From contig CALXVS010000005.1 in assembly GCA_944392145.1 (NCBI GenBank), forward strand, positions 1,045 through 65,044: a stretch of DNA of 64,000 bases. The letters run 5' to 3'. The notes beneath the pieces are model-generated. The model made no database searches. It saw only the letters and a list, made by a program, of their open reading frames with translations, and was not told the origin of the DNA. The translations under genes were made by a program, and so were the position numbers. The DNA is from an uncultured Alphaproteobacteria bacterium (GTDB lineage: Bacteria > Pseudomonadota > Alphaproteobacteria > CAAHEQ01 > UBA3637). Shown in pieces: positions 4,682 to 33,654 of the stretch (positions within the stretch are counted from its first letter, which is position 1; each line of letters starts with the position of its first letter).

Positions 4682-4756
4682 TGGGCTGTCGCCAAGTGGT
4701 AAGGCAACGGTTTTTGATACCGTCATTCGTTGGTTCGAATCCAGCCAGCCCAGCCA
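4682..4756 (+). tRNA. tRNA-Gln(TTG); integration hotspot
   Basis: Cloverleaf with TGGGCTG/CAGCCCA acceptor stem, anticodon arm ACGGT-TTTTGAT-ACCGT, GGTTCGAATCC and encoded CCA. Confidence 0.97.
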
Positions 4757-4932
4757 ATAAAAAGAACACACCTCAGGGTGTGTTTTTTTTATTGACCGGA
4801 TGTGGGGATGAGAGACAACGAATGAAATGAGTTGGTTCGTTCACGAAGCGTAAGCGGAGTAGACGCCGTTAGGCGGTCCCGAAGTTATGAGGGATAAATT
4901 GCTTGCAATTTACAATCCAGCCAGCCCAGCCA
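4757..4932 (+). repeat. RtT-like tRNA-linked repeat, copy 1 (176 bp)
   Basis: Terminator hairpin, antisense tRNA T-arm segment, GTTGGTTCG, a 74-bp hairpin-rich insert, then AATCCAGCCAGCCCAGCCA (identical to tRNA-Gln 4738-4756). Confidence 0.9.
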
Positions 4933-5326
4933 AAACAGACAAGTCGCTATTTTTAGCGGCTTTTTCTTTATTTTACAAGCACTTATATTGGTCCGTGTAC
5001 AGCGTTTTTCAAAAAGCTCTTTTTTCAGCCTTACACGGACTCAAAATTCAAAAAAGCCTTTGTTTTCAATGCTTCTGTCTTGGGATGTCAATTTTTCATC
5101 CCAGAGAGAGGAAGATGTATTCAGACTGAGCTTAGATGAGAAAAAGGTGGTCCTATAACACGCTTATTGCTACTGCCATCTCGGGGTACCTACCTGCCAC
5201 CTAGAGGACCTCGGGAACCCTACCGGCACATCCCAGCTATAAAATAAGTGCAACATCGTTAAAGGCGTGTTTTTTTGCAAGAGCCTTTACATGCGAGAGC
5301 CAATGAGAGGCAATGCTTATTCAGTA
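4933..5326 (+). repeat. Conserved non-coding island leader, copy 1 (partner 28585-28979)
   Basis: Colinear similarity over ~395 bp including a terminator hairpin, the 50-bp inverted-repeat site, TGGGAT..ATCCCA and CAAGAGCCTTT..CAATGAGAGGC.ATGCTT.TTCAGTA. Confidence 0.85.
4991..5040. other. 50-bp att-like site with 9-bp inverted arms
   Basis: GTCCGTGTA-N32-TACACGGAC; the same 50-bp spacing recurs at 28643-28692. Confidence 0.55.
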
Positions 5327-5340
5327 TGATTGCTCATTTC

Positions 5341-5368
5341 AACCTTTGCCTATACGTATACAAAGGTT
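5341..5368. promoter_or_regulatory. 28-bp imperfect palindrome (protein-binding or recombination subsite), copy 1
   Basis: AACCTTTGCCTATACGTATACAAAGGTT; related copies at 9650, 9697 and 12161. Confidence 0.6.
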
Positions 5369-5507
5369 GAAACAAATGCCAACATCTTAAATATCCATAC
5401 AAAATCTTAACTTTTTGGTTTCAAAATGGTTTTACTTTTATAAAAATTATACTATATTTGCTTTATTCATTGCAGAAAATATATAAAAATACTGGGGGAA
5501 GTAAGCA

Positions 5508-6155
5508 ATGATCAGTAGATATGACAAGAATATGGTATATATTGGACCTGTTGATAAAAAAGAAGCTCATATAAAAGGCTATTGGCATAAAGTCGCTACT
5601 GGGATTGTGTATAATCCTATGGAAAAAACGATTTTCTTTCAAACAATCTATCCAAAAGAAAGCTACGGTTTTGACAGACCAGATTATATAGATTTTGCTG
5701 TCGGGGGTCACATTGAAGATAAAGAAACGCCATTAGATGGTTTATATCGGGAAGCAAAAGAAGAATTGGGGTTAGATAAAGAAATTATGGATAACGCCTA
5801 TTTTATTGGCGTGCGTCGAATAAATAAGGACTTAACTGCAAACTATAAATTAAGAGAATTTCAACACATCTATGGCATTCCAGTCAACTTTGACTTACAG
5901 GATTTTAATATGTTGGCTTCAGATAAAGAAGTAAAATCCATTGTAAAAGTGAATGTGGATGACTTAATCTGTCTATTAGACAACAATACGCCTGAAATCA
6001 AAGCAGAGCATCGTATTTTAGATAAAGAGACAAGAGAGACTATTGAATATAAAACCCTGCCATTAACAAAAAATGATATTATAGATGATTATTTTGTAGG
6101 GGATTTTCTTTTAAATTTATTATATACAATTAAAGCCAATTCTTTTTTTAGTTAG
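5508..6155 (+). CDS. NUDIX hydrolase (IDI-like subfamily)
   Basis: Nudix box GGHIEDKETPLDGLYREAKEELGL; N-terminal KKEAHIKGYWH. Confidence 0.85.
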   Translation: MISRYDKNMVYIGPVDKKEAHIKGYWHKVATGIVYNPMEKTIFFQTIYPKESYGFDRPDYIDFAVGGHIEDKETPLDGLYREAKEELGLDKEIMDNAYFIGVRRINKDLTANYKLREFQHIYGIPVNFDLQDFNMLASDKEVKSIVKVNVDDLICLLDNNTPEIKAEHRILDKETRETIEYKTLPLTKNDIIDDYFVGDFLLNLLYTIKANSFFS

Positions 6156-6218
6156 TCTTAATTTTCGGTTTTACTTTTATAAAGTAATAGGTTATTATGA
6201 AAGAAAGGAAGTCGTAAA

Positions 6219-7355
6219 ATGAAGAAAAAAAATTATAAATATAAAAGTTCTATCAAAACAGACTTTATTTATTGGTTAGTGCAACAAAAAAAAGATGATA
6301 ACCTAAAGAAATATCGACGAGGAACTGCTATCGCTTATGCAGAGAGACTTTCACGTTTTTGTAATAAATTTTTTCCAGCTAAAAAAGAAAAACCATTATT
6401 TCAAAAAGAAAAATCTTTGCTACAATTTGTAGATAATATTGGACCTTCTATGATGTGTTGCTGTTTGTGTACATCTTTAAAAGAACCAAATGAAATGTTG
6501 AAAACTGAAGAAATGCGAGTATTAGCAAATGCTTTTTTTTGTTACAGGGTTTCCAAAGATCAAAGGACTGCACATCATCAAATGTTTAAAGATGATTTAT
6601 TTGAAAAGATGGTAATTTATCTATGTCGAAAAAAATCAGGTAATGAATACCAAAAAGTCATAGAGCTGTTTTATGATTTTTTGAAAGATACAAAATTTGA
6701 TGGTTTTTCAACCTTGTATGAAGAGATCGAAAAAAGGTTAGAAGAACTGCGTAAAGACGATAGCGTTTTTTGGAAATATGGTTATATTGAAGCGACAAAA
6801 AGAACGCCAGCAATGATTATTGCTAGGGCTGGACAAGTTGGAATTCCTGTTACCGCTCTGACAAAAATATTTAAGTGCGACTACCGAACAATTAAGAAAA
6901 TGTTAAAAGACAATAAAATTGCTAGTTGTCATCATCGAAGGGGATCAGTTAGCATAGCTGATTTGAATGCTTATTTTTTAAAAAAACATACTGGATTGCA
7001 TCAAAAAGATGAAAATGGAGTGATTTTTACATCAAAACAGGAAGATTTTATTGAAAATGCATATGCGGCATTATTAAATTGTACAGAAAAGTTAAAAAGA
7101 ATTAATCCGACTTTATCTGATGACAAAAAACAAGAACGCAAAAAAGAAATATTAAAATATATAAATGAGTTATTGTCCAATTATCAAAATTATGGGCGTA
7201 ATAAAATATCGCATTGGACTACTTGCAAAGAAATTTCAAAAGTCACGGGCAAAACGAATCGCACTATTCAGCGCGCAGCAAGAGCAAAAAAAATTCCAAC
7301 AACACGGTATTTTAAGAAAAAAGTAGGATACTTTAACGAAAAAATTGAGCTCTAA
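6219..7355 (+). CDS. Hypothetical DNA-binding protein with two putative excisionase/MerR-like HTH segments
   Basis: IPVTALTKIFKCDYRTIKKMLKDNKI and WTTCKEISKVTGKTNRTIQRAARAKKIP; basic protein. Confidence 0.45.
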   Translation: MKKKNYKYKSSIKTDFIYWLVQQKKDDNLKKYRRGTAIAYAERLSRFCNKFFPAKKEKPLFQKEKSLLQFVDNIGPSMMCCCLCTSLKEPNEMLKTEEMRVLANAFFCYRVSKDQRTAHHQMFKDDLFEKMVIYLCRKKSGNEYQKVIELFYDFLKDTKFDGFSTLYEEIEKRLEELRKDDSVFWKYGYIEATKRTPAMIIARAGQVGIPVTALTKIFKCDYRTIKKMLKDNKIASCHHRRGSVSIADLNAYFLKKHTGLHQKDENGVIFTSKQEDFIENAYAALLNCTEKLKRINPTLSDDKKQERKKEILKYINELLSNYQNYGRNKISHWTTCKEISKVTGKTNRTIQRAARAKKIPTTRYFKKKVGYFNEKIEL

Positions 7356-7563
7356 AGCCAGAAGAATAAAACATATATACTTTATCAATACCCATTAGTA
7401 ACACTTATTTATCAATATGTTATTGTGACTATTGTATGTCGCAAAATGTCGTCAATAAATTTGACTAATTTTAATCCCGTGCTATATTCACTCCACTTTC
7501 TCAAGTTGGGAAAGTTGTGTTTCGAAAGGAACGCATGTTTTAATTTAAATAAAGGATTTTATT

Positions 7564-9630
7564 ATGACTAATATAAAAAAAGTCGCGAATGGTGAAACCG
7601 TTCAAACTGAAACACATCAAGAAATTATTGAAGCCGAGTATACTGAAATTAACGTTATGAAGGCTTCGGAAATTGATGTACAGGAGCATGCGAATGACAA
7701 TATCCCAGACAATCCTAACAAACCAAATGAATGTGCAGTAGTTCCAATTCCATCACAAGAAGAATTGTTTATCGATATTGACGCTATTGTTGATCAATTT
7801 GATTTACCTAAAGACCAGCTTGAAATGATTTGTGAAAACAATCCAAAAGCTGTATATATTCCAACTGATTCGATTAAATTACAACAATTTATTCGTTGTC
7901 AACAAGGAATCTCAAAAACTGCTGAGAGCTTCTCAAAAATGAAAAAACTGCCACCAACTGCACAGAAATTCTTTTTGCAAAAAGCTCAATTATATGCATA
8001 TCTCTGGCTTAAAGCAGAAGCGAGATTAGGTAAAGAACTCCAAAAAATTGCGACACAAGAAGGTTTTAGAAGCGATTTAAAAGAAAAAGAAAAGGGTAAA
8101 GAGGCTGACAAAAGTAAAGATAAGGACAAAAATGAAGATAAAAAAAAGGTAAAGCGTCCTTTTAAAGAAGTCTTTGAAGAAATTCGCACTAAAAGACAAA
8201 TTTTAGATGAAGATTACGGGCTTACTTATAACCAAGCACGCGACTTAGTACGTTTAAGTGATGAAGTGATTGAACTTGAAATGAAATATGCAATTGCAAA
8301 CAACGAAGTTCCTTCCAGACGACACGCATTATCATTTTTAAACAAAGAAAGTTCTAAAGTTGAAAAAGAATGTAAAGATGCATTTGAACTGGACACTTCT
8401 TTTTCTGCAGTTTCTCATGATGACTTATTGGGTAGAATTACGGAAGAAGATATACCTTATTGTTCAATTTTTTCTTGCATTGGATCTGGTGAATATTATT
8501 TAAAATCACGCGGTTTTAAATGTGTCTTAGCCAATGAAGCTGATGAAAAACGGGCAGAATACTTCTCTTTAAAAATGAAAGAATTGGGCGAGGAGGACTG
8601 CAAAATGTTTCAAGGCAAATTTCAAGATCACTTTGATGAACTGGTTGATGAATTTAAAAAAAGAAACAGTCAACTGCTTTTGGCCTGTCCACCTTGTCAA
8701 ATTTTCTGCGCACAAAAAGGCAAAGGCTTTTTGAAGGATCCCAGATTGGATTTGATTGTTTGGCTGATTAAGTTTATTAAGGAGGTCAAACCCAAATATA
8801 TTGTTATTGAAAATGCCAAACAGTTCTTAAACTTCTCAATGCCAAAAGATACAGAAAATGATGGAGAACCAGCCAAAAATTTACGTACTGCATTAAAAGG
8901 TAAAACCATTGGACAATATATTAAAGATGAATTAACTTCTGAAAATTATGATGTTAATTTTGCAAATGAAGACGCTTGTTTTTATGGCTGCCCTCAATCG
9001 CGCGTTAGATCCATTGTGTTAGCATCCCAAACCGGGGTATGGCCATTTCCTAAAAAAGATGATCATGCTGTATTACCTTGGCAAGTGATTGGTCATTTAC
9101 CGTCACTTGAACCTGGTGAGGGAACTGGTTATGATAAAGCGCCTCTTTTATCAAATAAAAATCCTGAATTAGCGGCCGAAATCTATAATGCTTTGATTCA
9201 TACAGCCCCGGGTTGTTGTGTTGCTGATAATCCACCAGAATATCAAATTCCCGGCTATGGTTTTTTCGGTGCGAAATGTTCTAGAAATTCTTGGAATAAG
9301 CCTTGGAGCACAATTGAAGGTGGGTCAAATCAAGCATTAGGTTTACGCACCATCCATCCTGGAAGACCTAAACCAGATGGAACCTATTCGGATCCTCGTT
9401 GTTGTACTTTACGAGAGACGTTTTTATTAAATACTCTTCCCGAAGATTACACAATTCCTAAAAAGTTTGAAGATAAGAAATATGAAAACTTTATTTGGAC
9501 AGTGATGGGGGAGATTTTCTTACCTCGCATGTTGGAAAGAATCATGGAAACAATTCCTTTGCCTCATCGAAAAAATCTGATTAAAATTGAACCAAAGGAA
9601 GAAAAAAACGAGAATGAAGAGGTGGCATAA
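7564..9630 (+). CDS. DNA (cytosine-5)-methyltransferase with long N-terminal extension
   Basis: Motif I-like SIFSCIGSGE, LANE, catalytic PPCQ, motif VI IENA, motif VIII PQSRVR, IHP..R..T.RE near the C-terminus. Confidence 0.8.
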   Translation: MTNIKKVANGETVQTETHQEIIEAEYTEINVMKASEIDVQEHANDNIPDNPNKPNECAVVPIPSQEELFIDIDAIVDQFDLPKDQLEMICENNPKAVYIPTDSIKLQQFIRCQQGISKTAESFSKMKKLPPTAQKFFLQKAQLYAYLWLKAEARLGKELQKIATQEGFRSDLKEKEKGKEADKSKDKDKNEDKKKVKRPFKEVFEEIRTKRQILDEDYGLTYNQARDLVRLSDEVIELEMKYAIANNEVPSRRHALSFLNKESSKVEKECKDAFELDTSFSAVSHDDLLGRITEEDIPYCSIFSCIGSGEYYLKSRGFKCVLANEADEKRAEYFSLKMKELGEEDCKMFQGKFQDHFDELVDEFKKRNSQLLLACPPCQIFCAQKGKGFLKDPRLDLIVWLIKFIKEVKPKYIVIENAKQFLNFSMPKDTENDGEPAKNLRTALKGKTIGQYIKDELTSENYDVNFANEDACFYGCPQSRVRSIVLASQTGVWPFPKKDDHAVLPWQVIGHLPSLEPGEGTGYDKAPLLSNKNPELAAEIYNALIHTAPGCCVADNPPEYQIPGYGFFGAKCSRNSWNKPWSTIEGGSNQALGLRTIHPGRPKPDGTYSDPRCCTLRETFLLNTLPEDYTIPKKFEDKKYENFIWTVMGEIFLPRMLERIMETIPLPHRKNLIKIEPKEEKNENEEVA

Positions 9631-9649
9631 GCCGCCTCTTTTTTTATTT

Positions 9650-9724
9650 AACTTCTGACTTAATACATACAAAGGTTATGTAATATAAAAATGATTAACC
9701 TTTACCTACGTATGTACAAAGGTT
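9650..9724. promoter_or_regulatory. Two tandem 28-bp palindromic sites (9650-9677, 9697-9724)
   Basis: AACTTCTGACTTAATACATACAAAGGTT and AACCTTTACCTACGTATGTACAAAGGTT. Confidence 0.6.
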
Positions 9725-9745
9725 GGAAAATGAAAAAAAACATCT

Positions 9746-9880
9746 CAAGCACAAACAAACGGTTTTACATTTCTGATAATTCACGACATGTTAAAACGGT
9801 TTTCAAGGCATTATTCTAAAAAGTAAGTTCCTATCGCTTTAAATTTCAAAAACAAAATGTTCTATAAAAAGTATGAATGA
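9746..9880 (+). repeat. ~135-bp conserved non-coding block, copy 1 (partner 32248-32379)
   Basis: Shared GGTTTTACATTT, CGGTTTTCAAGGCATT, TTTCAAAAA-CAAAATGTTCTAT and GAATGA in the same order and spacing. Confidence 0.75.
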
Positions 9881-10023
9881 TACCGAATTTTGAAGAATTG
9901 CTTAAAAATAGTTGAAGGTTTCTTCCTGTTTAGATTCTGAAAAAGGCGTACAGGTAAAGCGAGACTTCTCCTTTATCTATTCATAAGTATACCCTCTCTT
10001 CACTTAAAAAAGGAGACAATGCA

Positions 10024-10611
10024 ATGCGCAATATCGTTGAAATATCAAGTCCAGAACAAGAAAAGATAATCAAACGGTTATATGAAAATGGCTTTATACC
10101 TAATACGTTCATTATCTTTAATCCTGGACAAACAAATATCTCTGAACAGAATCTTGCATATCGTTTTAAAGAAGGACTGGGAAAATATTATTCCAAAACT
10201 CTTGGTAAAAGATACAACAAACATCCTGAAAAACAATATAAGATGATAGTATTCTTGGAGCATGGTAAGAACAGAGATATAGATGAAAGCACACCACATT
10301 TACATATTCTAATAGACCTACCTAAAGACAAGGTTCAAGACTTTTATGAGTTTATGCTCAATCATTTAACGCTATATTACTATTACATATCCGATGTAAG
10401 AGATAAAACTTTAATAGATATAACCGGACAGCCATTAGATATGAAGCAAATCTGGTGTTATGGTGATAAAGAGTTTGTGAAATCAGAAAAAGACAGACGT
10501 TTCAGACCCAGCAGAATATTTACGACCAAAGATTTTCAGAAACCTATCCGTCATTTTAACCAGTATAATAAACATGAATGCATACGTGAATGGTTTTTAT
10601 CTGCACCATAA
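10024..10611 (+). CDS. Putative HUH-superfamily endonuclease (rolling-circle Rep-like)
   Basis: VFLEHG...PHLHILI (HUH motif) followed by a YxxK motif (CYGDKE); AAGGAG RBS. Confidence 0.55.
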   Translation: MRNIVEISSPEQEKIIKRLYENGFIPNTFIIFNPGQTNISEQNLAYRFKEGLGKYYSKTLGKRYNKHPEKQYKMIVFLEHGKNRDIDESTPHLHILIDLPKDKVQDFYEFMLNHLTLYYYYISDVRDKTLIDITGQPLDMKQIWCYGDKEFVKSEKDRRFRPSRIFTTKDFQKPIRHFNQYNKHECIREWFLSAP

Positions 10612-10917
10612 ATTTTTATTTACTATATGAGAGAAATAGTAATCAGTCCATTTTTTGAAGAAAACTGACGAAAAAGCATTTTATCTATAAATGATGAGCG
10701 AAAAATTTTAACACTTCTTCATAAAATGAGCAGAAACGCATTCCAAACACTCACCAGACACAACAGATTAAAAAGATGTGTCAACCTATACCAAAATAAA
10801 ACTGCTCACCACGGATGATTTAAACTGATTTGGGAATTTATAGCTAAAAAATAACCGCTATCTAAGAAAATAGCGGTACATTTTATTTTTATCATATTTT
10901 TTGATTTTTCAATTAGA

Positions 10918-11259
10918 TCACCAATCTGAATCAAGCATAATAGTGAGGGTTCTGGCACACTTTGACGGATCTGAAGGATCCTCTGAACCATATTTCATAT
11001 CAGGTGAGTAATAATCTACTTTCCACACTATCTTTTCACCTTTATAATCAAAATTGCCAAAATCTCTTTCTGAATAGGGATCATTTCCTCTATGAAAATC
11101 ACTAAACGTTCTTATCTTTTCAAATATTTCGGCAATTTCTTCTTTTGATTTAGATCTAATGGATCGTGTTAAATGTATTTGACCGCCGATTCCATAACGT
11201 CTAAGCAAATCATTCAATTTTCTGATCTTGGCTACTTTATCTATCCCTTTATTCGACAT
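10918..11259 (-). CDS. DUF3768-family protein
   Basis: IRKLNDLLR, NDPYSERDFG, WKVDYY, GSEDPSDP..RTLTIML signature. Confidence 0.8.
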   Translation of the reverse strand: MSNKGIDKVAKIRKLNDLLRRYGIGGQIHLTRSIRSKSKEEIAEIFEKIRTFSDFHRGNDPYSERDFGNFDYKGEKIVWKVDYYSPDMKYGSEDPSDPSKCARTLTIMLDSDW

Positions 11260-11446
11260 TAAAATACTCCGTACAAGTAGCTAGAAGATGGTTATAATCA
11301 GCACTCATTGCTTCTTTTGTAAATTCGTTTATTTCAGTTTCAGATAGTCCTGCATGTTTCATAGCACGTCTGCATATTCCAAGAATGTTAAATGCATTTG
11401 AATCTTGACCAATCAATTCAACTGTTATATCTGGATATTTAGGCAT
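11249..11446 (-). CDS. Small conserved mobile-element hypothetical protein
   Basis: VELIGQDSNAFNILG..RAMKHAG..EAMSADYNHLL resembles small phage/ICE proteins; overlaps its neighbours as in an operon. Confidence 0.6.
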   Translation of the reverse strand: MPKYPDITVELIGQDSNAFNILGICRRAMKHAGLSETEINEFTKEAMSADYNHLLATCTEYFNVE

Positions 11447-11753
11447 TGACGCCTCCAAAACGTTGAACTAATACAAACTTTCTAAACTGTTTAAGAGAGT
11501 TTATGTAGGACTCATGGCTTCTACGACCAATTGTCCATTTATCACCACGATGACCATATTGTTCTAAAATAGTGTTGATGTTGTCAGCTAATTGCTTTGC
11601 TGTATAATTTTCTTTTTCGCATACTTTGGCCACTCTCCATGCATAGTCTATGGCTGTTGACGGATTACCGGAAATTGAAAATTCTTTATATCCTTTTTGA
11701 ACCAAATAAGCTTGAAATTGATTTAACATGAACATTTCTCCTTTTGCTTGCAT
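11439..11753 (-). CDS. Hypothetical protein
   Basis: Co-oriented with the neighbouring small genes; shares LVQ..TAI.YA.R...C with the N-terminus of 6219-7355. Confidence 0.6.
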   Translation of the reverse strand: MQAKGEMFMLNQFQAYLVQKGYKEFSISGNPSTAIDYAWRVAKVCEKENYTAKQLADNINTILEQYGHRGDKWTIGRRSHESYINSLKQFRKFVLVQRFGGVNA

Positions 11754-11869
11754 ACTTTTTTATCCTTTCTGTTTATTTTGTTAATACGCTGATTAAAATT
11801 TAAATTATCTAAATTCTTCGCTAATAACGCTCATCATTAAGGTAATTTAAAAATTTTAGTTCTGTTTAT

Positions 11870-12004
11870 TTATTGTTCAACTGATATGATATCTGTCATA
11901 ACTGCACAACCACGTTCGGCTTCACGTTGACAAGCTTCTATTGCTTCTCTTAAAGACCAATAAATTGTTGGCATTAAAATTCCATTTACTTTTATTTGAT
12001 ACAT
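11870..12004 (-). CDS. Small hypothetical protein (44 aa)
   Basis: ATG at 12004 preceded by AAAGGA; first gene of the minus-strand small-gene run. Confidence 0.4.
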   Translation of the reverse strand: MYQIKVNGILMPTIYWSLREAIEACQREAERGCAVMTDIISVEQ

Positions 12005-12160
12005 AATAAAATCCTTTCTTTTTCGTTGGTTATAGAAATATAATATCGCGTTTTTATTCATTCGCGAGCCCCTTAAACGCAAAAAAATTAGAAAAATTCT
12101 ACTTTTTTGAGCCTTTTTCTACAAAAAATTAGAGTTTTATTAGTAAAAAGCAGAAAATTT

Positions 12161-12294
12161 AACCTCTACCTACGCATATACAGAGGTTAAACACAGCAAA
12201 CCTCTGCCAAAAAAGCAGAGGTCGGTACTTCAATTAAGTGACATTGATGTCTGTTAATGAAAAAAACAACCTCGATTTAATCAAAACCGAGGTT
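12161..12294. other. res-like cluster of three AACCT..AGGT(T) inverted-repeat subsites (28, 25 and 27 bp) plus GACAT-TG-ATGTC
   Basis: Subsites at 12161-12188, 12199-12223 and 12268-12294; palindrome at 12236-12251. Confidence 0.5.
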
Positions 12295-12303
12295 AGTTCA
12301 TTA

Positions 12304-13665
12304 TTAAAACCGTTTTTGGATGGATAATTCAATAAGTGATTTTTGATATTCTCGTTGCCAAATATTTGATTTTTTATCCGTATATGAATAAGTTAAAACG
12401 GGCATTAAACCCCATAAAGAAATTTTACGGTTTGATAAAGAGACAGAATAACGTTGCGTGATATCCCATTCTTTGATTTCTTTAAATTCATAATCTTTCA
12501 CCGTCCAGCGCTTTCCTTTATAATTTGTAAATAAGACTGAAGGTTCAACATATACATGAAAACCCCAAGGCACATCGGCCCCAAATCCTAAAGCTAAATT
12601 TACCCGATCATTTGTATATGTTTTATCTTTCGTTTTTTCATATTCATAGCCGGTTTTGAATATCAAATACTTTGATGAATCCAATGCATAAAACATGCGT
12701 AAACGAGCCGTTTTAACATCTCCGTTTAAAATATCTCCATAATCATCATAATGCGTCGGCGTATAAGCCAAATATAACCGTGCATTTAATTGTTTTGTTA
12801 AATCATATCCTGTATCAACCATAAAACCGGTTGTGTAATTATACGCTTTATGACCTAAAAATCTTTTAGAAAAGGTAGGTCCAAAGAATACATCACCTTT
12901 GTTATAAACGTATTTAAGTCCTAAAACATAAGATAAATAAATATCATCATATTTTTTATCCTGATATTTCAAAGAATAAATTAATGCTTCATTTCTTATA
13001 CGCCAATTATCAGATAACTTAAATTCATAATTGCCACCAACCGTAATGTTGAGACCAACATCTTTTTCTGGGTCATCTAATGTATTACACATCGGACCAA
13101 ACATAGTCATAACACACTGTTCACCGGATGTTGTATTATTGACATTATTATCCGGTGCAATACCGAAATTAAACCAAAAATTGTAATTTTTATTTTGTCT
13201 GATATAATACAGCGCCTGTTTAATTCGAATTTGAATGGGAATAGGTAGTTTTTCGTCTGCCAACGCTAAACGATAGTGATAATCCGCACGGATCCAATCT
13301 TTGCGAATGAGGTATAATTCAGCTAATCGAAAACGGATATTTGAAATATTGGGTTGGTGTTCCAAAATAAAATAGTAAATATCAATGGCTTCATCTATTT
13401 TGTTTTCTTTTGTTGCTATTTGAGCCAATAAATACAACCGTTCAATTTCTAATTCTTTTTGTTGAAACGGTTTTAAAAGAAGAACTTTCTTTGCATCTTC
13501 CAGTTTGTTTTTTTCAATCAACTCTTGAGCAAAAGTCAAAGTCTGCTCATGTGTCATTGTGACAACGGTTGTTTCGTTATCATTTGATTTTAATGTTGAA
13601 GCTTGGGCAGTTATTCCACCCAAGCCGATCAACATCATAAATGTCAAACAAACACGTAAGAACAT
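12304..13665 (-). CDS. Slam / type XI secretion outer-membrane protein (TPR + DUF560 barrel)
   Basis: Signal peptide, TPR region (LEHQPNISNIRFRLAELY), GIAPDNNVNN motif, beta-barrel ending KRF. Confidence 0.85.
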   Translation of the reverse strand: MFLRVCLTFMMLIGLGGITAQASTLKSNDNETTVVTMTHEQTLTFAQELIEKNKLEDAKKVLLLKPFQQKELEIERLYLLAQIATKENKIDEAIDIYYFILEHQPNISNIRFRLAELYLIRKDWIRADYHYRLALADEKLPIPIQIRIKQALYYIRQNKNYNFWFNFGIAPDNNVNNTTSGEQCVMTMFGPMCNTLDDPEKDVGLNITVGGNYEFKLSDNWRIRNEALIYSLKYQDKKYDDIYLSYVLGLKYVYNKGDVFFGPTFSKRFLGHKAYNYTTGFMVDTGYDLTKQLNARLYLAYTPTHYDDYGDILNGDVKTARLRMFYALDSSKYLIFKTGYEYEKTKDKTYTNDRVNLALGFGADVPWGFHVYVEPSVLFTNYKGKRWTVKDYEFKEIKEWDITQRYSVSLSNRKISLWGLMPVLTYSYTDKKSNIWQREYQKSLIELSIQKRF

Positions 13666-13668
13666 TTA

Positions 13669-16476: not shown

Positions 16477-16545
16477 AAAAGGAAAGCGTCTGCGAAAAGC
16501 GGGCGCTTTTTTTGTGATATGGGCTGAGGGGATACGAGTCAACGA

Positions 16546-20548: not shown

Positions 20549-20553
20549 AAGGA

Positions 20554-21603: not shown

Positions 21604-21606
21604 ATT

Positions 21607-23172: not shown

Positions 23173-23319
23173 TAGAATAAACTCCTTTTGTAATATAGGG
23201 GAAAGTCTACACAATTTAAGAAAAAGAATCAAGAAAAATGAATCAAGAATTTATGCAAGTCGTTGACTTTAAAATGAATCTATGTTAAAAGCGGAAATTA
23301 AGTATAAAAAGGAAGCAAA

Positions 23320-23793
23320 ATGAAACAACTATTTCTTTACGTTGCAAGTATGATGTTATTGCCGATGCCTGTTTTGGCAACGATAATCAATGGATGGGAT
23401 ATAAACGCACAATCAGCTGAAATACGCCCTTTATTTTCATTGTCGCAGGAGGTTGAAACATATACGGGCGATATCATGCTACATGAAATAACACGTGAGC
23501 CGAAAGAAGGTTTTGTATATGTTGCGATTCCGACGACTGTATCACGCAAAGAAACCGATTCAAAATTTTTATCGGAAAGTGTTTTGTTGAATGTGAACGG
23601 AGAAAGTTTCAGTCGTGTTAAAGATGATTCTTTTTTAATTGACTACGGCATGAAACCGTTTCCTCACATGAATATTAAATTAGGAACGCATAAAGGGGTT
23701 TATCTTTTTGAAGTTCCAAAAGAATCTGTTTTAAACGAGATGGTTTTGATTTATCAAAATCAAAAAATAAAATTGTCTGTTGAGCAAAAATAA
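23320..23793 (+). CDS. Exported hypothetical protein (DUF4352-like fold possible)
   Basis: Signal peptide ending VLA; PKEGFVYVAI, GVYLFEVPK; first gene of the operon with the ASST. Confidence 0.55.
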   Translation: MKQLFLYVASMMLLPMPVLATIINGWDINAQSAEIRPLFSLSQEVETYTGDIMLHEITREPKEGFVYVAIPTTVSRKETDSKFLSESVLLNVNGESFSRVKDDSFLIDYGMKPFPHMNIKLGTHKGVYLFEVPKESVLNEMVLIYQNQKIKLSVEQK

Positions 23794-23806
23794 AAAAGGG
23801 GGCTTA

Positions 23807-25429: not shown

Positions 25430-26601
25430 AGGTATTGCGCGCTTTTTTAATAAGCGTTGTATTTATTGGTTGTTTCAGCGGAAGAGCCGTTGCGACCGAA
25501 GATGCGAGCAGTGGCACGGCTTACACGCAATGGAAGCAACATTTGCATGAAGCGTATGGGCTGGATTATCGTGTGCGAGCAGGATTTATGGCTCAACGCG
25601 GTGCACCGAACGGCAAAGAAACACTACTGCGCGATAAATATGAAATAGAAGCAAATTGGGATATGTTTGCAAGCGAAACATGGGGCGCGGGGTCTATTCA
25701 ATTTTTATATGAGGATATTAATTATCCGAAACTGGAAGGATCTCAAATGAGTGCGCGTATCGGTGTTGTGGAACCGATTAATGATGATGCATTTCAACGG
25801 GAATATTTTAAGCGTTTTACATATACGCATCAATTTACGGGTAAGATGAAGCATATTTCGCTATCCGTCGGACAGTTTTTAATTGGTAATTTCGGTAAAG
25901 CCTCTTATAAATCTAAACCGTTAAGCTATTTTAATAATTTTTCGCTCGCGAAGAATATGACGAAAGGATACCCGACAGGCGGTGTCGGTGCTTATTTAAC
26001 GTATACGGGTTTTGAAAACTTAACCCTCATTGCGGGCGGACAAGATACCACGAATTATTATCCGCAGAATATATCGGTGGAACATTTAGATGAACATAAA
26101 TGGACGAGTTTTGTTTATGCTTCATGGACTCCGAAATTAACCTCACTCGGCAAAACGATTTTTACGGGATTTATTTATCATAGCCCGGCCATTCAAAAAT
26201 ATGATGGTCAATTTAATCGGGCATTTACGAAAGAGGCAAACGGCTGGTCATTTACGGCAAGGCAGGATATCGGGAAATGGACGGTGTTAGGAAAAATCAA
26301 CGGATCCACAGGTAATCGGATGTGTGTGGAGCAAAGTTATGTGGCAGAAGTGATGTATCATAATCCGTTTGAGCGCAATGAATTGGATCAAATCGGTATA
26401 GGATTCGGTGCTAATAAAATCAGCACGTTTAATGCCAATGCGGTTCGCCCGTGGGAGAATGTGGCAGAAGCATATATCACATTCGGCATTTCGGATTTTA
26501 TCACGATTACGCCGGATATTCAACTATACATCAATCCGGCTTTAACCCGAGAGCATCATACAGCGGTTGTTTCTTCCGTTCAGATGAAATTTTTATTTTA
26601 A
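25426..26601 (+). CDS. Carbohydrate-selective porin, OprB-like
   Basis: Signal peptide, DQIGIG, E.Y....SDFITITPDIQLYINPA, C-terminal Phe. Confidence 0.75.
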   Translation: MKVLRAFLISVVFIGCFSGRAVATEDASSGTAYTQWKQHLHEAYGLDYRVRAGFMAQRGAPNGKETLLRDKYEIEANWDMFASETWGAGSIQFLYEDINYPKLEGSQMSARIGVVEPINDDAFQREYFKRFTYTHQFTGKMKHISLSVGQFLIGNFGKASYKSKPLSYFNNFSLAKNMTKGYPTGGVGAYLTYTGFENLTLIAGGQDTTNYYPQNISVEHLDEHKWTSFVYASWTPKLTSLGKTIFTGFIYHSPAIQKYDGQFNRAFTKEANGWSFTARQDIGKWTVLGKINGSTGNRMCVEQSYVAEVMYHNPFERNELDQIGIGFGANKISTFNANAVRPWENVAEAYITFGISDFITITPDIQLYINPALTREHHTAVVSSVQMKFLF

Positions 26602-26618
26602 TACAGTTGTGTTTAACA

Positions 26619-27563
26619 TTATAGTTGAACAGAATTTACCTCATTATAGCGGTCTGCTTGTTCCAGCGTATGAACCAGATTCACGATTAGCTCGTTATAT
26701 GGCACCGAAAGGTGATGTTTTTGCGCCAGCCGAACAACGGCACCGTTGATGAAATCAATTTCCGTTAAATGTCCTTTTTTTCTATCTTGCGACATGGAAG
26801 AATATCCCATCGGGTGTGTATCGGCAATTTCGCGCACAAAAGAAATGATTTCATCTGTATTAAAGCTAAATCCTTCCGCTTGGGCCACTTGCACGGCTTC
26901 ACGCAGAACGGCCGATGTGATAATACCGGCTTCGGTGTTGTGTGTGATGAATCCCATCGGTGTTTGTGTGATATATGTAAACGCATTAATGGCAATGTTC
27001 ACAAAGAGTTTTTTCCACAAAAGAAAGTCGATATTATCCACAATAGCACAGCCTAAACCCGATTTTAAGAAAACATCGCGAATCTCTTCCAATTTTGAAT
27101 ACGGAACGAACTGACTGCCGATAGACGTAATACCGATACCGCTGTGAAACACTTTGCCGGTATCTAATAAAACGGAGTTATGATTGGTTGTGCCTAAAAG
27201 CAACGGCGATTCGGGAATATATTGCGTGATAATATCTTTATTGCCCATGCCGTTTTGCAATGTCAGAACAAGCGTATGCGGTCCGATAACGGGTAAATTT
27301 TGTTGCACGGCGCCGGCTGTTTGTGTTGCTTTCACCAAAATTACAACTAAATCGACTTGTTACTGATAAGTACCCGATGCATAAGCACACAGATGATGGA
27401 ACGAATCGATATGGTGGTCTGTTTCCGTAACGGATAAGCCGTTTTGATTGATTATATCTGTTTTTTCTTGTGTATGGGTCAGTAAGATAACTTCATTTGT
27501 TTTACTGAGTTCGGCGCTGAATAAACAACCTAAGGCGCCGTCTCCGATAATGGCAATTTTCAT
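26619..27563 (-). pseudogene. panE: 2-dehydropantoate 2-reductase interrupted by an in-frame TAA (27360-27362)
   Basis: MKIAIIGDGALG...TYQ*QVDLVVILVKA in one frame, then LQNGMG, WKKL.VN..IN, SSMSQD, TEIDFING. Confidence 0.85.
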
Positions 27564-27777
27564 AATTCCTCTTTATTCCTTATCCGGTGATATCTATATC
27601 AATATAAATGATAACTTTGATTGATATTAACAGAATAATTTGAAATCGCAACACTTTTTATGCATATTATGAACGGAAGGTATTTCTTTTTGCATGCGGT
27701 AGCAGAAATCCGATAAATGCGAATCCGATTTTTTTTAATTAAAAGAACGGCTTTTTATTCACAAAAATTCAAATAGT

Positions 27778-28380: not shown

Positions 28381-28409
28381 TTCCGTGTATTACCAGACCT
28401 CTCCAGCCA
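28381..28409 (+). other. Right-junction (att-like hybrid) site of segment B
   Basis: TTCCGTGTATTACCAGACCTCTCCAGCCA, matching 16277-16305. Confidence 0.65.
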
Positions 28410-28584
28410 ATAAAAAGAACACGCCGTAAGGTGTGTTTTTTTATTGACCGGATGAGGGAATGAGAGGCAACAAATGAAATGAGTTGGTTCGTTCACGAAG
28501 CGTAAGCGGAGTAGACGCCGTTAGGCGGTCCCGAATTTATGAGGGATAAATTGCTTGCAATTTACAATCCAGCCAGCCCAGCCA
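28410..28584 (+). repeat. RtT-like tRNA-linked repeat, copy 3 (175 bp)
   Basis: Same architecture as copy 1; tRNA 19-mer at 28566-28584. Confidence 0.9.
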
Positions 28585-28979
28585 AAACAGATAAGTCGCT
28601 AGAAATAGCGACTTTTTTATTATTTTACAAGCACTTAATCTGGTCCGTGTGCAAACCTTTTTAAAACACCTGTTTTTCAGCCTTACACGGACTCACGTTT
28701 CAAAAAATCATTTGTTTTCAATACTTCTGCCTTGGGATGTCAAAATTTTATCCCAGCGGTAGCAGGACGTGTTCAAACTAAATTTTGATATAAAAAATAT
28801 TCTTCCATATACCATTATTGCTATTGCCATCTTGGGAAACCCACTAGACATCTAGAAAATATCGGGAAGCCACACGGCATATCCTAGCCATAAAAATAAC
28901 TGTGACGTCGTTAATCGACTCATTTTTCAACAAGAGCCTTTGCGTGCGTGAGGCAATGAGAGGCTATGCTTGTTCAGTA
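28585..28979 (+). repeat. Conserved non-coding island leader, copy 2
   Basis: Colinear with 4933-5326; includes the 50-bp site at 28643-28692. Confidence 0.85.
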
Positions 28980-32100: not shown

Positions 32101-32217
32101 ACGATGTATTGTCCAAAATGTCACGCTGAAATGATAATTAGAACACGAAAAGATGGAATAGCGTTTTATGGGTGCTCCAATTATCCACAATGTAAATGGA
32201 CACGTTCCATAAAGTGA
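29161..32217 (+). CDS. UvrD/helicase-IV-like SF1 helicase with inserted PD-(D/E)xK-like nuclease domain and C-terminal topoisomerase-type C4 zinc ribbon
   Basis: VVAGAGTGKT, TFHSLG, KSLPEVIIANFLF..YEYE..PDFYL...IWIEHWG, VDEFQD, VGDDWQSIYRFRG, HKAKGLE, EERRLFYVSLTRAK, CPKC..FYGCSNYPQC. Confidence 0.9.
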   Translation: MISKKQIQDIPTSIKDDFLNLKNAEKIIDTLLRIKSTCTCWEEHKSYYLFELIPELQKKSFQKTHLDEQDIIDINYIKDNMPSEMYNVYLTPIFQHIEHIDNEYKSIKKRKELEQRKKELEHLEKERELKKRYSELVKIQHEIEKEVETPTEKISSFVQQTEDFFQLYTLLSNQGIQFDIEEFFLKFKYNIEDYCRKKKNLFKKIIDFKKKISSESYINKRNALSLTNEYCSLIKEIQNEKEFNECFSDFININLKDNILQHNEKWFQITAKKYAEPFYNATGKHFNIQQMKAILNDEEEVLVVAGAGTGKTTTILGKIAYLLIEKKVLPHEILVLVFNKKNQIELQEKIKKLPFTDVEKIQVHTFHSLGYNILGKKTNTNISIKNIFFDYIKNKFDNTKSEMFLLKLFDFITHYSNSMKLFKEFERSKIAKLYQSYIDDLAFETLNSQISRLAKRNESISGEIVKSLPEVIIANFLFENHIRYEYEKSYPLNGSEICKPDFYLPDYDIWIEHWGVEKNEKNQECVPWLDDTQEKDYLRHKQSKLNRYKEDNINLIELFLFQFHNGTLVNNLKAALINYGVKMIPMSDKEKIECLRKLYKAKKLENLAELMEAFIKLFKANAGKSLADLENVKKELLKYSSLKYFTERTKAFMSILSPIYEEYTRQLGESYIDFNDMLNDSYAKLKNEPHKVKAKFIIVDEFQDIATDAFNLIDIIKKNNLSMMYCVGDDWQSIYRFRGSNLEFFQNFISHSKYACEYKIEETFRNGQNLLNIAGNFVMKNPMQKIKKLYSLQKETFIQARIYEDKNSKDFLLVFENLIDDIVERYSTTSNIDILLIARYHKDFYDNFNINSKRWKYISPPPNSENKNHALMDLKHKDMVHFNLQTAHKAKGLESDIVIILNTKDDIKGFPSKLESDYLLEYFLKSKDIYPYEEERRLFYVSLTRAKKELYLLVPHTNQSSFIREIIDDINKKESEKVKSTMYCPKCHAEMIIRTRKDGIAFYGCSNYPQCKWTRSIK

Positions 32218-32247
32218 CATCAATGTCACTTATTCGAAAAAGCCCCC

Positions 32248-32379
32248 CAAACACAAAAGGGTTTTACATTTTTTATGTTTCACAACATATAAAAGCGGTT
32301 TTCAAGGCATTTTTTTGAAAAATAAAATTCTACCTCGTTCATTTTCAAAAAACAAAATGTTCTATGAAAATGGAATGAC
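32248..32379 (+). repeat. ~135-bp conserved non-coding block, copy 2
   Basis: Colinear with 9746-9880. Confidence 0.75.
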
Positions 32380-32564
32380 AAAAATAAAGGTCTGCTTATC
32401 GCTTTATTTTGATGTTATTTTGAACAGATTTGCTTGACGATATTGGGACGGATTAAAACGTCGTCCTATAGTTAAAGATCTACCCATAGTTATAACTTAA
32501 AATAAGGTAAAATAAGATAAGTAAAAAGAGTATAAACTAAAACTGAACAATAGGAGTTCAATAC

Positions 32565-33536
32565 ATGCTAATTAACAGTCGACTTAATCAGCAAGATACA
32601 GCAGACAGGAGTAGAGACGTCCGATATCGTCAAGATAATAAGTCCACGTCAAGGATGATGGTCAAAACACGTTTTGGAGAGTACAAGGTAAAAAGTGACA
32701 TATTCAAGGCTCAGAGTTATAACGACTTTTTATCCAAAATGATACAGGTCATTACAACTAATATTGGAAGATTATCTTCTCATTCTACTAAATCTTTTCC
32801 CATGATTCAAATTAATCACGCCTCATTAGTGGCGGTTATTGATCATTACATACGAACACAACTTTTTAATCAAGTGTTTAATCCAATGGAAGGAAACAAT
32901 TGGCGTGTTTTAATGATTGCAAAAGTAGGGATTGTCCAGTATATCATTAAACAGATTAGTAAGGCTATTTACGAGTTACAACATAGTGTGGATATTAAGG
33001 ATGCCGTTATTGTTCAAAAAGCATTTTCCGAAGTTTCATCGTTAAAAATGAGAGAGAATTTTTCATTGGATATTGTTAAATCCATTTATGAAAAGACAGC
33101 TTACCCCTCTAATAAAGGCGAATTTGAAAAAGATTTTCTATTGTTTGCAGATAATGATACTAAAGTTGAACGCTTATTAAAAATCAATGAAAATTACCAC
33201 TTGTTTGCAGCTTTGAAATACATTAGAAACGATGGGATACTTTCTTCATATTATCCAGATTTTATGGTTAAAATTGGAGACGAAATTTATATGGTAGAAA
33301 CAAAAGCACAAAAAGATATCTACCAAGAAAATGTTATTCAAAAAAGAAAAGGGGCTCTGGATTGGTTAAAACGGATAAATGAACTGCCCTCGAAAAACAG
33401 AATGAATGCAACCTGGCATTATGCGATTTTAGATGATAATACCTTTTATTCTGCAAAAAATCGAGGGAATTCTGTAAAAGATATGCTTAGATATTGCAAG
33501 TTAACCAATTCCAAGATTTCCGGTCAATTATTATAA
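32565..33536 (+). pseudogene. C-terminal (nuclease) portion of a type III restriction Res-like subunit
   Basis: EKDF, KINE, YYPDFMVK...YMVETKA (PD-ExK); no helicase motifs and no mod gene. Confidence 0.6.
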
Positions 33537-33580
33537 GTTAATTTTTTTACTATAAATTTAGGCTGAAATCAGATAAAAAT

Positions 33581-33654
33581 CGAAGTAGAAGCCGTCAGAT
33601 GGTCCCGAATTTACGAGAGGAAAATTGCCTGCAATTTACAATTTAGCCAGCCCA
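33581..33654 (+). repeat. Degenerate 3' half of the tRNA-linked repeat (copy 4)
   Basis: GTAGA.GCCGT.AG..GGTCCCGAATTTA.GAG.G.AAATTGC.TGCAATTTACAAT..AGCCAGCCCA. Confidence 0.8.

Follow-up and report, generated by a model that had tools for sequence, protein, structure and literature searches.

It is well established that variable and defence islands can arise by the tandem build-up of islands at the 3' ends of tRNA and tmRNA genes. The SCC/SCCmec elements are serine-recombinase islands that enter the 3' end of rlmH, regenerate their site and pile up in tandem, with elements lacking recombinase genes among them, while in integrons cassettes, many with a single gene and most in the same orientation, alternate with a conserved recombination site. 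Islands in tandem with partial copies of a tRNA or tmRNA between them have already been published (PMC3146451; bioRxiv 10.1101/2020.12.28.424599). The first of these reports, in the portions consulted, also summarises the accretion of SCC composite islands and assigns to the Dehalococcoides ssrA islands an integration module made of a ~540-aa serine recombinase, a small one of ~200 aa and a DNA methylase, which is absent in some islands and accompanied by variable cargo. A separate line of work concerns the tRNA-linked repeats (TLRs), known since 1978; those of E. coli (RtT sRNA, rttR) are presented in the consulted part of PMC8144298 as transcribed and processed RNAs without known function, and as matching the preceding RNA gene's 3' end exactly over their 3'-terminal 18-19 nt. 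A link between TLRs and islands was not found in the literature searched, and this link is the new part of the present work.

Here, we analysed a 64,000-nt stretch of DNA from an uncultured alphaproteobacterium (the window). Our results confirm that its tRNA-Gln(UUG) gene is followed by a unit, an island, a unit, an island, a unit, an island and a decayed unit, and none of the three islands is intact. We read this locus, with a probability of about 0.7, as an accretion array, anchored at tRNA-Gln, of integrative islands dependent on a large serine recombinase (LSR); the array is now defective and interleaved with TLRs. Its features are as follows.

4682..4756, forward strand: tRNA-Gln(UUG), anticodon ttg, called by ARAGORN and Rfam; 3' end ..AATCCAGCCAGCCCAGCCA
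4757..4935, forward strand: TLR U1; covariance model 148.8 bits, 99% identity to the G020 unit
4936..16305, forward strand: island A; leader 4936-5335, right end 16278-16305
16306..16479, forward strand: TLR U2; covariance model 147.1 bits
16480..16554, forward strand: truncated TLR U2b of another subtype; 87-89% against units of G014, G007 and G019
16546..27768, forward strand: body of segment B, a foreign chromosomal block; 97% identity to G031:C3, 82% to G080:C2
27778..28335, forward strand: large serine recombinase fragment of segment B; Pfam finds the Recombinase domain only
28382..28409, forward strand: right end of island B (TCCGTGTATTACCAGACCTCTCCAGCCA)
28410..28587, forward strand: TLR U3; covariance model 142.8 bits
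28588..33551, forward strand: island C; leader 28588-28990, right end deleted
33552..33661, forward strand: decayed TLR U4; 66% identity, covariance model 47 bits over 33500-33658

A repeat search places the ends of the intact copies at 4935, 16479 and 28587, with 97-100% identity over their last 110 nt; in U4 the left part is gone and the tRNA-end copy is mutated. As a preliminary description of this DNA had stated, U1-U3 begin directly 3' of CCAGCCA (4757, 16306 and 28410) and terminate in an exact copy of the last 19 nt of tRNA-Gln (19/19 nt). The last 17 nt of the gene occur exactly four times in the genome, all at these positions. Its other anatomical points were borne out as well: the blocks between units measure 11.4, 11.9 and ~5 kb, segments A and B share the same terminal 28 bp, and segments A and C share a leader, with 89% identity over 300 nt when compared in register and 76% over 394 nt in a BLAST alignment. 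The leaderless state of B, U2b and two internal parts of the unit, the T-stem 5' strand and an inverted copy of the tRNA 3' end, had been overlooked.

Judged by the order of their parts and by model matches, the array units are probably TLRs, relatives of the E. coli tyrT RtT repeats, a kinship that had already been proposed. U1 runs from a terminator hairpin through the inverted, diverged tRNA 3'-end copy, the T-stem 5' strand (GTTGGTTCG) and three hairpins to the 19-nt tRNA 3' end. The E. coli TLRs show the same order of inverted tRNA end, T-stem 5' strand, AGCG-loop-CG, GC hairpin, CCCGAA..GGG hairpin, third hairpin and AATCC, and are also alike in lying directly behind a tRNA, in being ~130-180 nt long and often tandem, and in taking their last 18-19 nt from the tRNA. 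A covariance model, R1, trained on 20 tRNA-Gln units from 16 genomes, matched 4 of 4 TLRs of the E. coli tyrT locus at full length (E 7e-6 to 2.5e-4, 19-24.5 bits, the E-values being rough) and nothing further in that locus. The Rfam RtT model, RF00391, matched none of the units at its gathering score or even at E 10. Pairing in hairpins H1 and H3 is preserved through two-sided changes in up to 11 of 20 sequences. A fold z-score of -3.0 and flanking terminator hairpins are only compatible with a possible co-transcription of the TLR with its tRNA and processing to a small RNA. Unlike the E. coli TLRs, those described here belong to an alphaproteobacterium and have islands inserted at their 3' ends; no such islands were seen in the 2 E. 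coli tyrT loci examined out of 30 listed.

TLRs extend beyond the array. Extra copies of their own last 17 nt were found for 6 of the 43 ARAGORN-called tRNA genes of the host genome, where Lys, Arg, Pro, Val and Ser units follow or match the respective tRNAs and where tRNA-Lys is trailed by 4 tandem TLRs with the same body and no intervening island. Two of the copies are tRNA 3' halves that start at the anticodon loop and carry the TLR body in the T loop. Among the relatives, which are genomes from outside the host's genus, a unit adjoins tRNA-Gln at 10 loci, and beyond the host family TLR relatives turned up in few of the other alphaproteobacterial families sampled (3/140). Tandem TLRs are also present at Gln loci, as U2/U2b in the window and as two tandem units in G016. 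U2b retains its own terminator and left arm and is severed at ..ATGGGTTGG; it records a former tandem arrangement of U2 and U2b.

The islands form a family with a conserved left leader of ~170-400 nt and the 28-nt right end. With at most 1 mismatch, a 17-nt right-end word gave 69 matches in 33 of 80 family genomes, in 1-7 copies per genome that are clustered and in the same orientation, while the reversed word, used as a control, gave 0 matches in the same 80 genomes, so the array pattern is not due to chance. The word was not found in island C ahead of U4. Relatives have island-free sites, variable numbers and swapped cargo, so that a fixed gene content, which the preliminary description had named as grounds for abandoning its reading, is not what was found; G009 and G023, of other genera, carry tRNA-Gln with a TLR and no island signal in 15 and 20 kb downstream, respectively. 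A 794-nt single-gene cassette, whose copies in 6 genomes from 3 genera are 95-98% identical over their full length, occupies the first slot after the tRNA in G028, the second in G021 and a place behind a TLR in G035. Island A encodes NUDIX, an HTH protein, a C5 DNA methylase, a 195-aa protein, DUF3768 and a 104-aa protein (Pfam, NCBIfam), as well as Slam with a 493-aa protein and an Mpi-family small serine recombinase (15324-15992), and it has no large serine recombinase. It is a mosaic, with module matches in G031, G035, G013 and G077, and its 195/DUF3768/104 module shows 94-98% amino acid identity to a recombinase-bearing island of G035. Island C codes for a UvrD/GajB-like helicase (1018 aa, 29161-32217) that contains a Zn ribbon and for a 323-aa protein that gave a weak restriction-endonuclease-like match. 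Defence-type genes are part of the family cargo (methylases, Mrr, PDC-S53 helicase, GajB-like helicase).

Domain matches and the LSRs of relatives support the earlier assignment of the cargo blocks to a serine-recombinase island family. Full islands of relatives encode a 531-aa LSR with Resolvase, Recombinase and Zn_ribbon_recom domains (for example at L037), and a small serine recombinase accompanies the LSR gene, at a distance of up to 10 kb, at 4 of the 22 LSR loci fetched (L042, L044, L045 and L059) and in G081. LSR fragments were found in many arrays. Intact close LSRs occur in 4 of 80 genomes (G035, G081, G001 and G064), against 33 of 80 with right ends, and no intact LSR of the family was detected in the window or the host genome, whose best other LSRs are 26-29% identical.

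Segment B is, from its sequence matches, a recombinase remnant whose interior was swapped for ordinary chromosomal DNA of another genus (11.2 kb), attached by two microhomology joins. The LSR fragment retains residues ~112-297 and the C-terminal tail, 90-96% identical to the 531-aa enzyme of G035, and has lost the catalytic domain. The block itself, matched to G031 over 11,225 nt, carries a transketolase 3' end, GT2, an ABC-2 exporter, GT10, two arylsulfotransferases, an OprB porin and panE, and the host genome's own tkt (C13) has only 57% amino acid identity. In the G031 and G080 stretches, which reach ~3 kb upstream of the block and 4-6 kb past its downstream end, Aragorn called no tRNA. When the window's first 40 kb were compared with these stretches by BLAST, the block alone was matched, with no TLR or leader. 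Both borders are unique joins, one inside a TLR and the other inside the recombinase gene. Segment B is a clean example of a dead island refilled by another genus's chromosome.

The 3' end of tRNA-Gln(UUG) is probably the primary attachment site, given that a leader directly follows it in G028, G019, G021 and G035. The 531-aa LSR would be the enzyme that recombines this end with a site on the circular island, where the right end TTACCAGACCTCTCCAGCCA and the start of the leader, AAACAGATAAGTCGCTAGAAA, meet. Outer motifs of the island site are symmetric about the observed junction; dyad symmetry was not seen at the chromosomal site. The core CCAGCCA(A) is present at tRNA/leader and at right end/downstream junctions, the tRNA being unbroken, and crossover may take place in this core common to both sites, the incoming island supplying a terminator hairpin in place of the one severed. 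The TLR would be a separate and older structured element ending in the last 19 nt of the upstream tRNA, so that every TLR would duplicate the tRNA half of the site, and tandem TLRs could repeat the whole site because each precedes the same sequence as follows the tRNA. Islands could then land after the tRNA or any TLR, which would yield the repeat-island-repeat pattern. Recombinase gene loss, deletions, homologous module exchange and the foreign patch in B would have shaped the array later. Four junction types (tRNA/leader, TLR/leader, right end/TLR and right end/leader) fit the one core. Classical LSRs do not recombine an island site with hybrid sites; right end/leader junctions could therefore arise only with a less strict enzyme, through multi-cassette circles or by homologous recombination.

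It is conceivable, if unlikely, that homologous recombination after DNA uptake built and shuffled most of the arrays, with leaders, right ends and TLRs as portable homology and the recombinase serving rare founding events only. In its favour, intact LSRs are scarce, U1-U3 are mosaics of each other, island A is a patchwork of modules matched at 84-97% identity by pieces from different contigs and genomes, and segment B shows that uptake of foreign chromosomal DNA occurred. However, the 17-nt right-end word is conserved exactly over 8 genera despite unrelated cargo, the first junction falls exactly at the tRNA 3' end, where identity is just 7-8 nt, and both joins of B are illegitimate.

The preliminary description had also held that the repeat travels with the islands or is duplicated by them, so that TLR and island form one mobile unit and every insertion brings a new landing pad. 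This part was not supported, and we consider such a self-renewing array quite unlikely. Among 41 right-end junctions of relatives, 13 continue straight into a leader without a TLR and 20 into a terminator and TLR-type sequence; a right-end module 97% identical between genomes is followed by a TLR in the host and by a leader in G065, and the same leader type comes directly after the tRNA in G035. Because what adjoins the same island ends differs between genomes, being a TLR in one and a tRNA or leader in another, the TLRs look like part of the target and not of the island, and island-free TLRs at other tRNAs and in E. coli point the same way. U1-U3 are closer to each other than to the units of all other genomes except G020. 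That genome is the one case that shows a TLR being carried along with island DNA: its TLR, with a UUG-type end and 99% identical to U1, lies behind a tRNA-Gln(CUG) with a different end, and next come a leader and a gene of island A. Single arrays with mixed TLR subtypes (G028, L061) also favour the mobile unit and argue against purely local duplication, and the shared 400-nt leader contains a decayed tRNA end, terminator and TLR left arm (score 41; shuffles mean 20.5, maximum 34).

TLRs acting as folded single-strand DNA sites in the manner of integron attC, with the left arm and the tRNA-end copy pairing to rebuild a duplex half-site, would be very improbable. By eye, the left arm tracks tRNA identity (Tyr in E. 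coli, GGGGAAGGAT/ATCCTTCCCC; Lys, Arg, Ser and Gln in the host), and the hairpins covary. However, serine recombinases are known to act on duplex DNA, and it is at the stem's outer end, not inside the stem, that insertions are found. The pairing is equally well explained by the E. coli TLRs being transcribed and processed RNAs, as given in the consulted part of PMC8144298. An assembly artefact, with repeats having fused contigs from different strains or species within one metagenome bin, is scarcely credible: the host genome is a 49-contig bin with many contig ends at tRNAs or TLRs, and G031, of another genus, matches parts of A and B at 92-97% identity, but the longest exact stretch between unit regions is 60-70 nt, the units are ~6% divergent, the borders of the foreign block lie in a TLR and a recombinase gene and not in repeats, and the same architecture was assembled independently in many genomes.

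Read as an accretion array at tRNA-Gln, the locus has the tandem serine-recombinase islands of SCC/SCCmec at one gene's 3' end, including recombinase-less ones, and the SCC-like picture suggested earlier fits. It differs in its tRNA target, which is not a protein gene, in its Gram-negative host and in its LSR, which is no Ccr orthologue (a weak match to the CcrB NCBIfam model, 81.7 bits against a cut-off of 900). Like integrons, it has cassettes of mostly shared orientation, often of one gene each, and a conserved separating site. Integrons have an IntI-type tyrosine recombinase next to the array and attC sites of 57-141 nt with R''/R' boxes. In contrast, the sites of the tRNA-Gln array measure ~200 nt with leader and terminator, and at least the tRNA-Lys cassette has its own promoter, sigma-70-like by eye. 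The Phage_integrase domain was absent from the 30 ORFs scanned (1-36.9 kb), the genome's 4 PF00589 matches lie on other contigs, with no IntI tyrosine recombinase at the array, and no GTTRRRY box was seen at the junctions by eye. The Dehalococcoides ssrA islands, as covered in the portions of PMC3146451 consulted, are alike in being multiple tandem islands 3' of a small stable-RNA gene with ~20-nt direct repeats of its 3' end, and the tRNA-Gln islands resemble them in integration module and variable cargo. In contrast, their target is tmRNA with insertion inferred in the T loop, here the very 3' end of tRNA-Gln; their recombinase gene is at the tRNA-proximal edge and overlaps the repeat, here near the distal end; and a TLR-like structured unit is not described in those portions. 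The Prochlorococcus tycheposon islands, in the consulted part of bioRxiv 10.1101/2020.12.28.424599, are likewise tRNA-seeded, with partial tRNA copies between elements, newcomers pushing older ones outward, fragmented integrases, extra partial tRNAs and flanking chromosomal DNA brought in. However, they mostly use tyrosine recombinases (910/937), carry replication genes and are punctuated by bare partial tRNAs and not by TLRs.

Our results describe a serine-recombinase island and cassette family in little-known small-genome gut Alphaproteobacteria and place probable relatives of the E. coli TLR/RtT repeats far beyond enterics. The testable link between TLRs and island insertion could give TLRs a role. 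A bolder and rather doubtful proposal is that TLRs are landing-pad modules for mobile DNA, each multiplying the island attachment site through its copy of a stable-RNA 3' end and the complement; in a stronger form, TLRs may arise as integration footprints in tRNA 3' halves. If this were true, tandem TLRs would make one tRNA gene a multi-slot docking array, it would be explained why TLR ends always track the upstream gene, and TLRs would contribute to genome plasticity in hosts ranging from E. coli to gut Alphaproteobacteria.

Our results show that the window holds a real structure, in which serine-recombinase islands are piled up behind an anchoring tRNA; systems of this kind are known. The preliminary description of a tRNA-Gln followed by alternating repeats and islands was correct, and its coordinates, 19-nt ends, 28-nt junction and leader were all confirmed. 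The features of the array are listed below, with TLR standing for tRNA-linked repeat and LSR for large serine recombinase.

4565-4641, tRNA-Arg(CCG), by ARAGORN and Rfam
4682-4756, tRNA-Gln(UUG), by ARAGORN and Rfam
4757-4935, U1, the ~175-nt repeat behind tRNA-Gln, by repeat search and sequence
4936-16305, segment A
16306-16479, U2, by repeat search and sequence
16480-28409, segment B
16480-16554, U2b, a second, shortened TLR of another subtype at the start of segment B
27778-28335, LSR remnant, followed by the perfect right end of B
28410-28587, U3, by repeat search and sequence
33552-33661, U4, a decayed copy, by repeat search and sequence

The intact units (U1, U2 and U3) start after CCAGCCA and terminate in the last 19 nt of tRNA-Gln, and the last 17 nt of this tRNA occur four times in the 1.45-Mb source genome (G000), always at the tRNA-Gln array. 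An identical 28 nt closes both segments A and B, and the leaders, or left ends, of A and C (the block between U3 and U4) are related, with 89% identity across 300 nt in register and 76% across 394 nt in BLAST. A wrong order of the blocks in this bin through an assembly artefact is unlikely: the unit regions share no exact stretch longer than 60-70 nt, the foreign block in B is bordered by unique joins, and the same architecture is found in many independent assemblies. A ~350-nt inverted duplication (1608-1959 and 34267-34619; 95% identical, with a 92-aa ORF per copy) flanks rho, both tRNAs and the entire array, and is therefore a possible substrate for inversion.

Five parts make up each unit, in this order: a terminator hairpin; a diverged copy of the tRNA 3' end in inverted orientation; the T-stem 5' strand plus half of the T loop (GTTGGTTCG); ~75 nt with three hairpins; and AATCC with the remainder of the tRNA 3' end. 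Given this order, the unit looks like the 3' part of a tRNA carrying a structured insert in its T loop. When 20 units of 16 genomes are aligned, two hairpins covary, with pairing kept despite two-sided changes in up to 11/20 sequences. The TLRs of the E. coli tyrT locus have the same order of parts, and R1, a covariance model built solely from alphaproteobacterial Gln units, matched all four of them over the full model length (19-24.5 bits; E 7e-6 to 2.5e-4 in 87.6 kb searched) with no other match there. The proposed tie to the E. coli RtT repeats gains support from these matches, and we concluded that the window units are TLRs. Rfam, including its RtT model, did not reach the units in the whole window at the gathering score or in three unit loci at E 10, the rows returned being two tRNAs and otherwise at chance level. 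According to one account, E. coli K-12 has 22 TLRs in ten loci; they match the tRNA or rRNA gene upstream of them over 18-19 nt of its 3' end and have no known function (PMC8144298).

Units with the same core also lie behind other tRNAs of G000, each terminating in the 3' end of its own tRNA, as follows.

tRNA-Lys(UUU): a tandem run of four units at 170-nt spacing, and beyond it two further units at intervals of 1.2 and 3.7 kb
tRNA-Arg(ACG): a unit
Ser(CGA)-like: a pair of units
Val(CAC) and Pro(GGG): units of a second subtype

Extra copies of the last 17 nt were found for 6/43 tRNA genes of G000 (ARAGORN set), and in relatives a unit adjoins tRNA-Gln (UUG or CUG) at 10 loci. The first sample of relatives had the unit in 22/36 genomes of the same family versus none of 24 from other families; a search of other alphaproteobacterial families with R1, at one genome per family and with stricter filters, found units in 3/140 genomes. 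Two copies, at 5266-5390 of the fetched locus L063 and at ~44900-44976 of G000 contig C10 (L064), are 3' halves of tRNAs, beginning in the anticodon loop and with a TLR body in the T loop; these would be either short-homology fusions or a hint at the origin of TLRs. Of these two, the Val copy directly follows a tyrosine integrase, at the distal end of a 38-kb segment.

Throughout the family, arrays of elements lie behind tRNA-Gln, and both ends of the elements are conserved. The leader (~170 nt, or 400 nt in its long form) has a terminator-like hairpin, AAGTCGC..GCGACTTTTT, beginning ~8 nt past the junction, followed by an inverted repeat (GGTCCGTGTAC, ~28 nt, TACACGGACT) read as a putative protein-binding site; as an invertible promoter it seems too short for inversion. 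The right end is TCCGTGTATTACCAGACYTCTCCAGCCA, and its 17-nt word, with one mismatch allowed, occurs in 33/80 family genomes from 8/16 genera, in 1-7 co-oriented copies mostly on a single contig (exact in 28/80), and the reversed word gave no match in the same 80 genomes. Junctions are of four types: tRNA to leader, TLR to leader, right end to TLR, and right end to leader. Among 41 readable distinct right ends, a terminator and TLR-type sequence come next in 20, a leader in 13 and other sequence in 8, three of which resemble, by eye, variant or decayed leaders.

Full-length islands encode a 531-aa LSR with Resolvase, Recombinase and Zn-ribbon domains. Of 80 genomes, four (G035, G081, G001 and G064) have an intact close copy, with at least 82% identity, and at least nine more have fragments, often the same C-terminal piece straight after the leader. 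The serine-recombinase island family postulated in the preliminary description is borne out by these LSRs together with the conserved ends, and the four copies provide the intact homolog of the 27778 recombinase. The islands also carry a 195-aa/DUF3768/104-aa module and C5 methylases, with Mrr, PDC-S53 helicase, S41 peptidases, GNAT enzymes and many family-less proteins as cargo, and a small Mpi-family serine recombinase lies less than 10 kb from the LSR gene in 4/22 fetched LSR loci and in G081. Six genomes of three genera share a 794-nt single-gene cassette, with 95-98% identity over its full span between junctions, at differing array positions. In two genomes (G009 and G023), tRNA-Gln and a TLR are present, and the 15 and 20 kb read behind them contained neither a leader nor a right end. 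Empty sites, variable numbers and moved cargo, all anticipated from the sequence of the window, are thus seen in relatives. The G035 island has defence-like cargo (locus L037, 931-3648) with a full-length PDC-S53 candidate-defence helicase. In four loci from Ca. Enterousia and related MAG records (L048, L051, L052 and L058), genes for distant LSR relatives (38-44% identity) stop at, or run into, the 3' end of a convergent tRNA-Asn(GUU), which recalls Dehalococcoides dsiB overlapping its repeat.

In the window, island A comprises a long leader, a methylase, a Slam pair, a small recombinase and a perfect right end, with no large recombinase among its genes. Its 195/DUF3768/104 module shares 94-98% amino acid identity with that of G035, and its pieces have 84-97% identity to parts of various contigs and genomes. 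The small serine recombinase module (15175-16051) passed the NCBIfam cut-off for the Mpi master invertase (273.8 vs 272 bits) and recurs at contig ends in two or more additional copies with 88-96% identity; being an Mpi-family invertase/resolvase inside islands, it was rejected as a transposon or IS source of the island ends. Island C begins with a leader and encodes a GajB/UvrD-like helicase with a Zn ribbon, together with a 323-aa protein whose nuclease-like match is weak; it has lost its own right end along with the left part of U4. Its content (29161-33536) is defence-like, with a GajB/DRT-helicase-like protein that bears a Top1-type Zn ribbon and with a possible nuclease.

Segment B has no leader. 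Its stretch 16546-27768 matches ordinary chromosome of G031, a genome of another genus, at 97% over 11,225 nt, and G080 at 82%, the chromosomal stretch spanning tkt to panE. Aragorn found no tRNA within ~3 kb upstream or 4-6 kb downstream of the block in these genomes, and the first 40 kb of the window, compared with the two stretches by BLAST, matched nothing beyond the block. The tkt of G000 itself has just 57% protein identity to that of segment B over the matching piece. At the left join, ATGGGTTGG is common to the TLR left arm and tkt, and at the right join ATTCAyAAAAAT is common to the panE upstream region and recombinase codon ~111. These joins, the recombinase remnant and the perfect right end mark B as a dead island in which foreign chromosome took the place of the left part by way of two illegitimate joins. 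Delivery of B as cargo by the recombinase was excluded by its chromosomal identity to G031 and by the illegitimate joins. Segment B also shows that U2 and U2b were formerly a tandem pair. No close, intact family recombinase was found elsewhere in G000, and the tRNA-Gln array is probably frozen. The genome has 12 Resolvase-domain matches in 1.45 Mb, several adjoining tRNA genes, and many of its contigs end within ~150 nt of a tRNA.

It had been suggested that the repeat moves with the islands, and this holds only in part: TLRs can be carried along yet mostly are not, and they are no fixed part of the element. Carriage is indicated by G020, where a UUG-type TLR 99% identical to U1 lies behind a tRNA-Gln(CUG) whose own end differs, by the mixed TLR subtypes in the G028 and L061 arrays, and by the long leader of A, which contains at 5222-5313 a decayed tRNA-Gln end, terminator and TLR left arm (alignment score 41 vs a shuffle maximum of 34). 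In the extended leader of C, no such copy scored above shuffles (29 vs a maximum of 29). On the other side, a 97% identical right-end module is followed by a TLR in the window and by a leader in G065, a long leader of the same type stands straight after the tRNA in G035, and TLRs occur without islands. A second array was observed behind tRNA-Lys(UUU) of G000 (end of contig C40, and C42, which is L063 1-5400), where four tandem TLRs precede a 1-kb single-gene cassette whose leader is related and whose right end has CTCACCA in common with tRNA-Lys; next come a TLR, a 3.5-kb segment with a 908-aa ORF and another TLR.

The joint expected in a circle, right end plus leader start, reads TTACCAGAC CTCTCCAGCCA up to the junction and AAACAGATAA GTCGCTAGAAA after it. 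Its outer words, TTACCAGAC and the reverse complement TTTCTAGCGAC, are by eye symmetric around the observed junction, which we take to be the look of an LSR donor site; no dyad symmetry was seen by eye in the chromosomal site. The right end loosely mimics the tRNA end (CCAGAC..CCAGCCA vs CCAGCC..CCAGCCA), which would place the crossover in or adjacent to CCAGCCA(A). A TLR would then duplicate the tRNA half of the target and, since what follows the tRNA also follows each TLR, a tandem TLR pair would duplicate the entire target. Three insertions into a run of tRNA and four TLRs would give exactly the order seen in the window. Such runs are known, with four TLRs at tRNA-Lys of G000, up to six RtT at E. 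coli tyrT and two at the Gln locus of G016. The junctions of right end and leader in relatives would require hybrid-site insertion, multi-cassette circles or homologous exchange. A Xer/dif-type module was rejected, the junction having by eye no dif-like 28-mer.

The closest system to the window array is that of the ssrA islands of Dehalococcoides, described as tandem islands behind tmRNA, with 20-nt repeats of the tmRNA 3' end at their borders and encoding a ~540-aa serine recombinase and a ~200-aa one, which the authors of that work compare to SCC (PMC3146451). Tycheposons share four features with the array: tRNA genes as seeds, partial tRNAs separating neighbouring elements, fragmented integrases and flanking DNA brought in (10.1101/2020.12.28.424599). 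At E. coli tyrT, 29 of 30 listed complete-genome rows have 1-4 annotated RtT and strain PSS-11 has 6. In strain JJ2434, a 7-kb lipid-modifying gene cluster with no recombinase, starting 17 nt past tRNA-Tyr, takes the place of the TLRs and tyrV, and no site-specific island was found at TLRs in the two tyrT loci inspected. A link between TLRs and islands was not found in print within a limited literature collection. What is new here is that the punctuation of the array consists of full TLRs, which appear to act as spare attachment sites.
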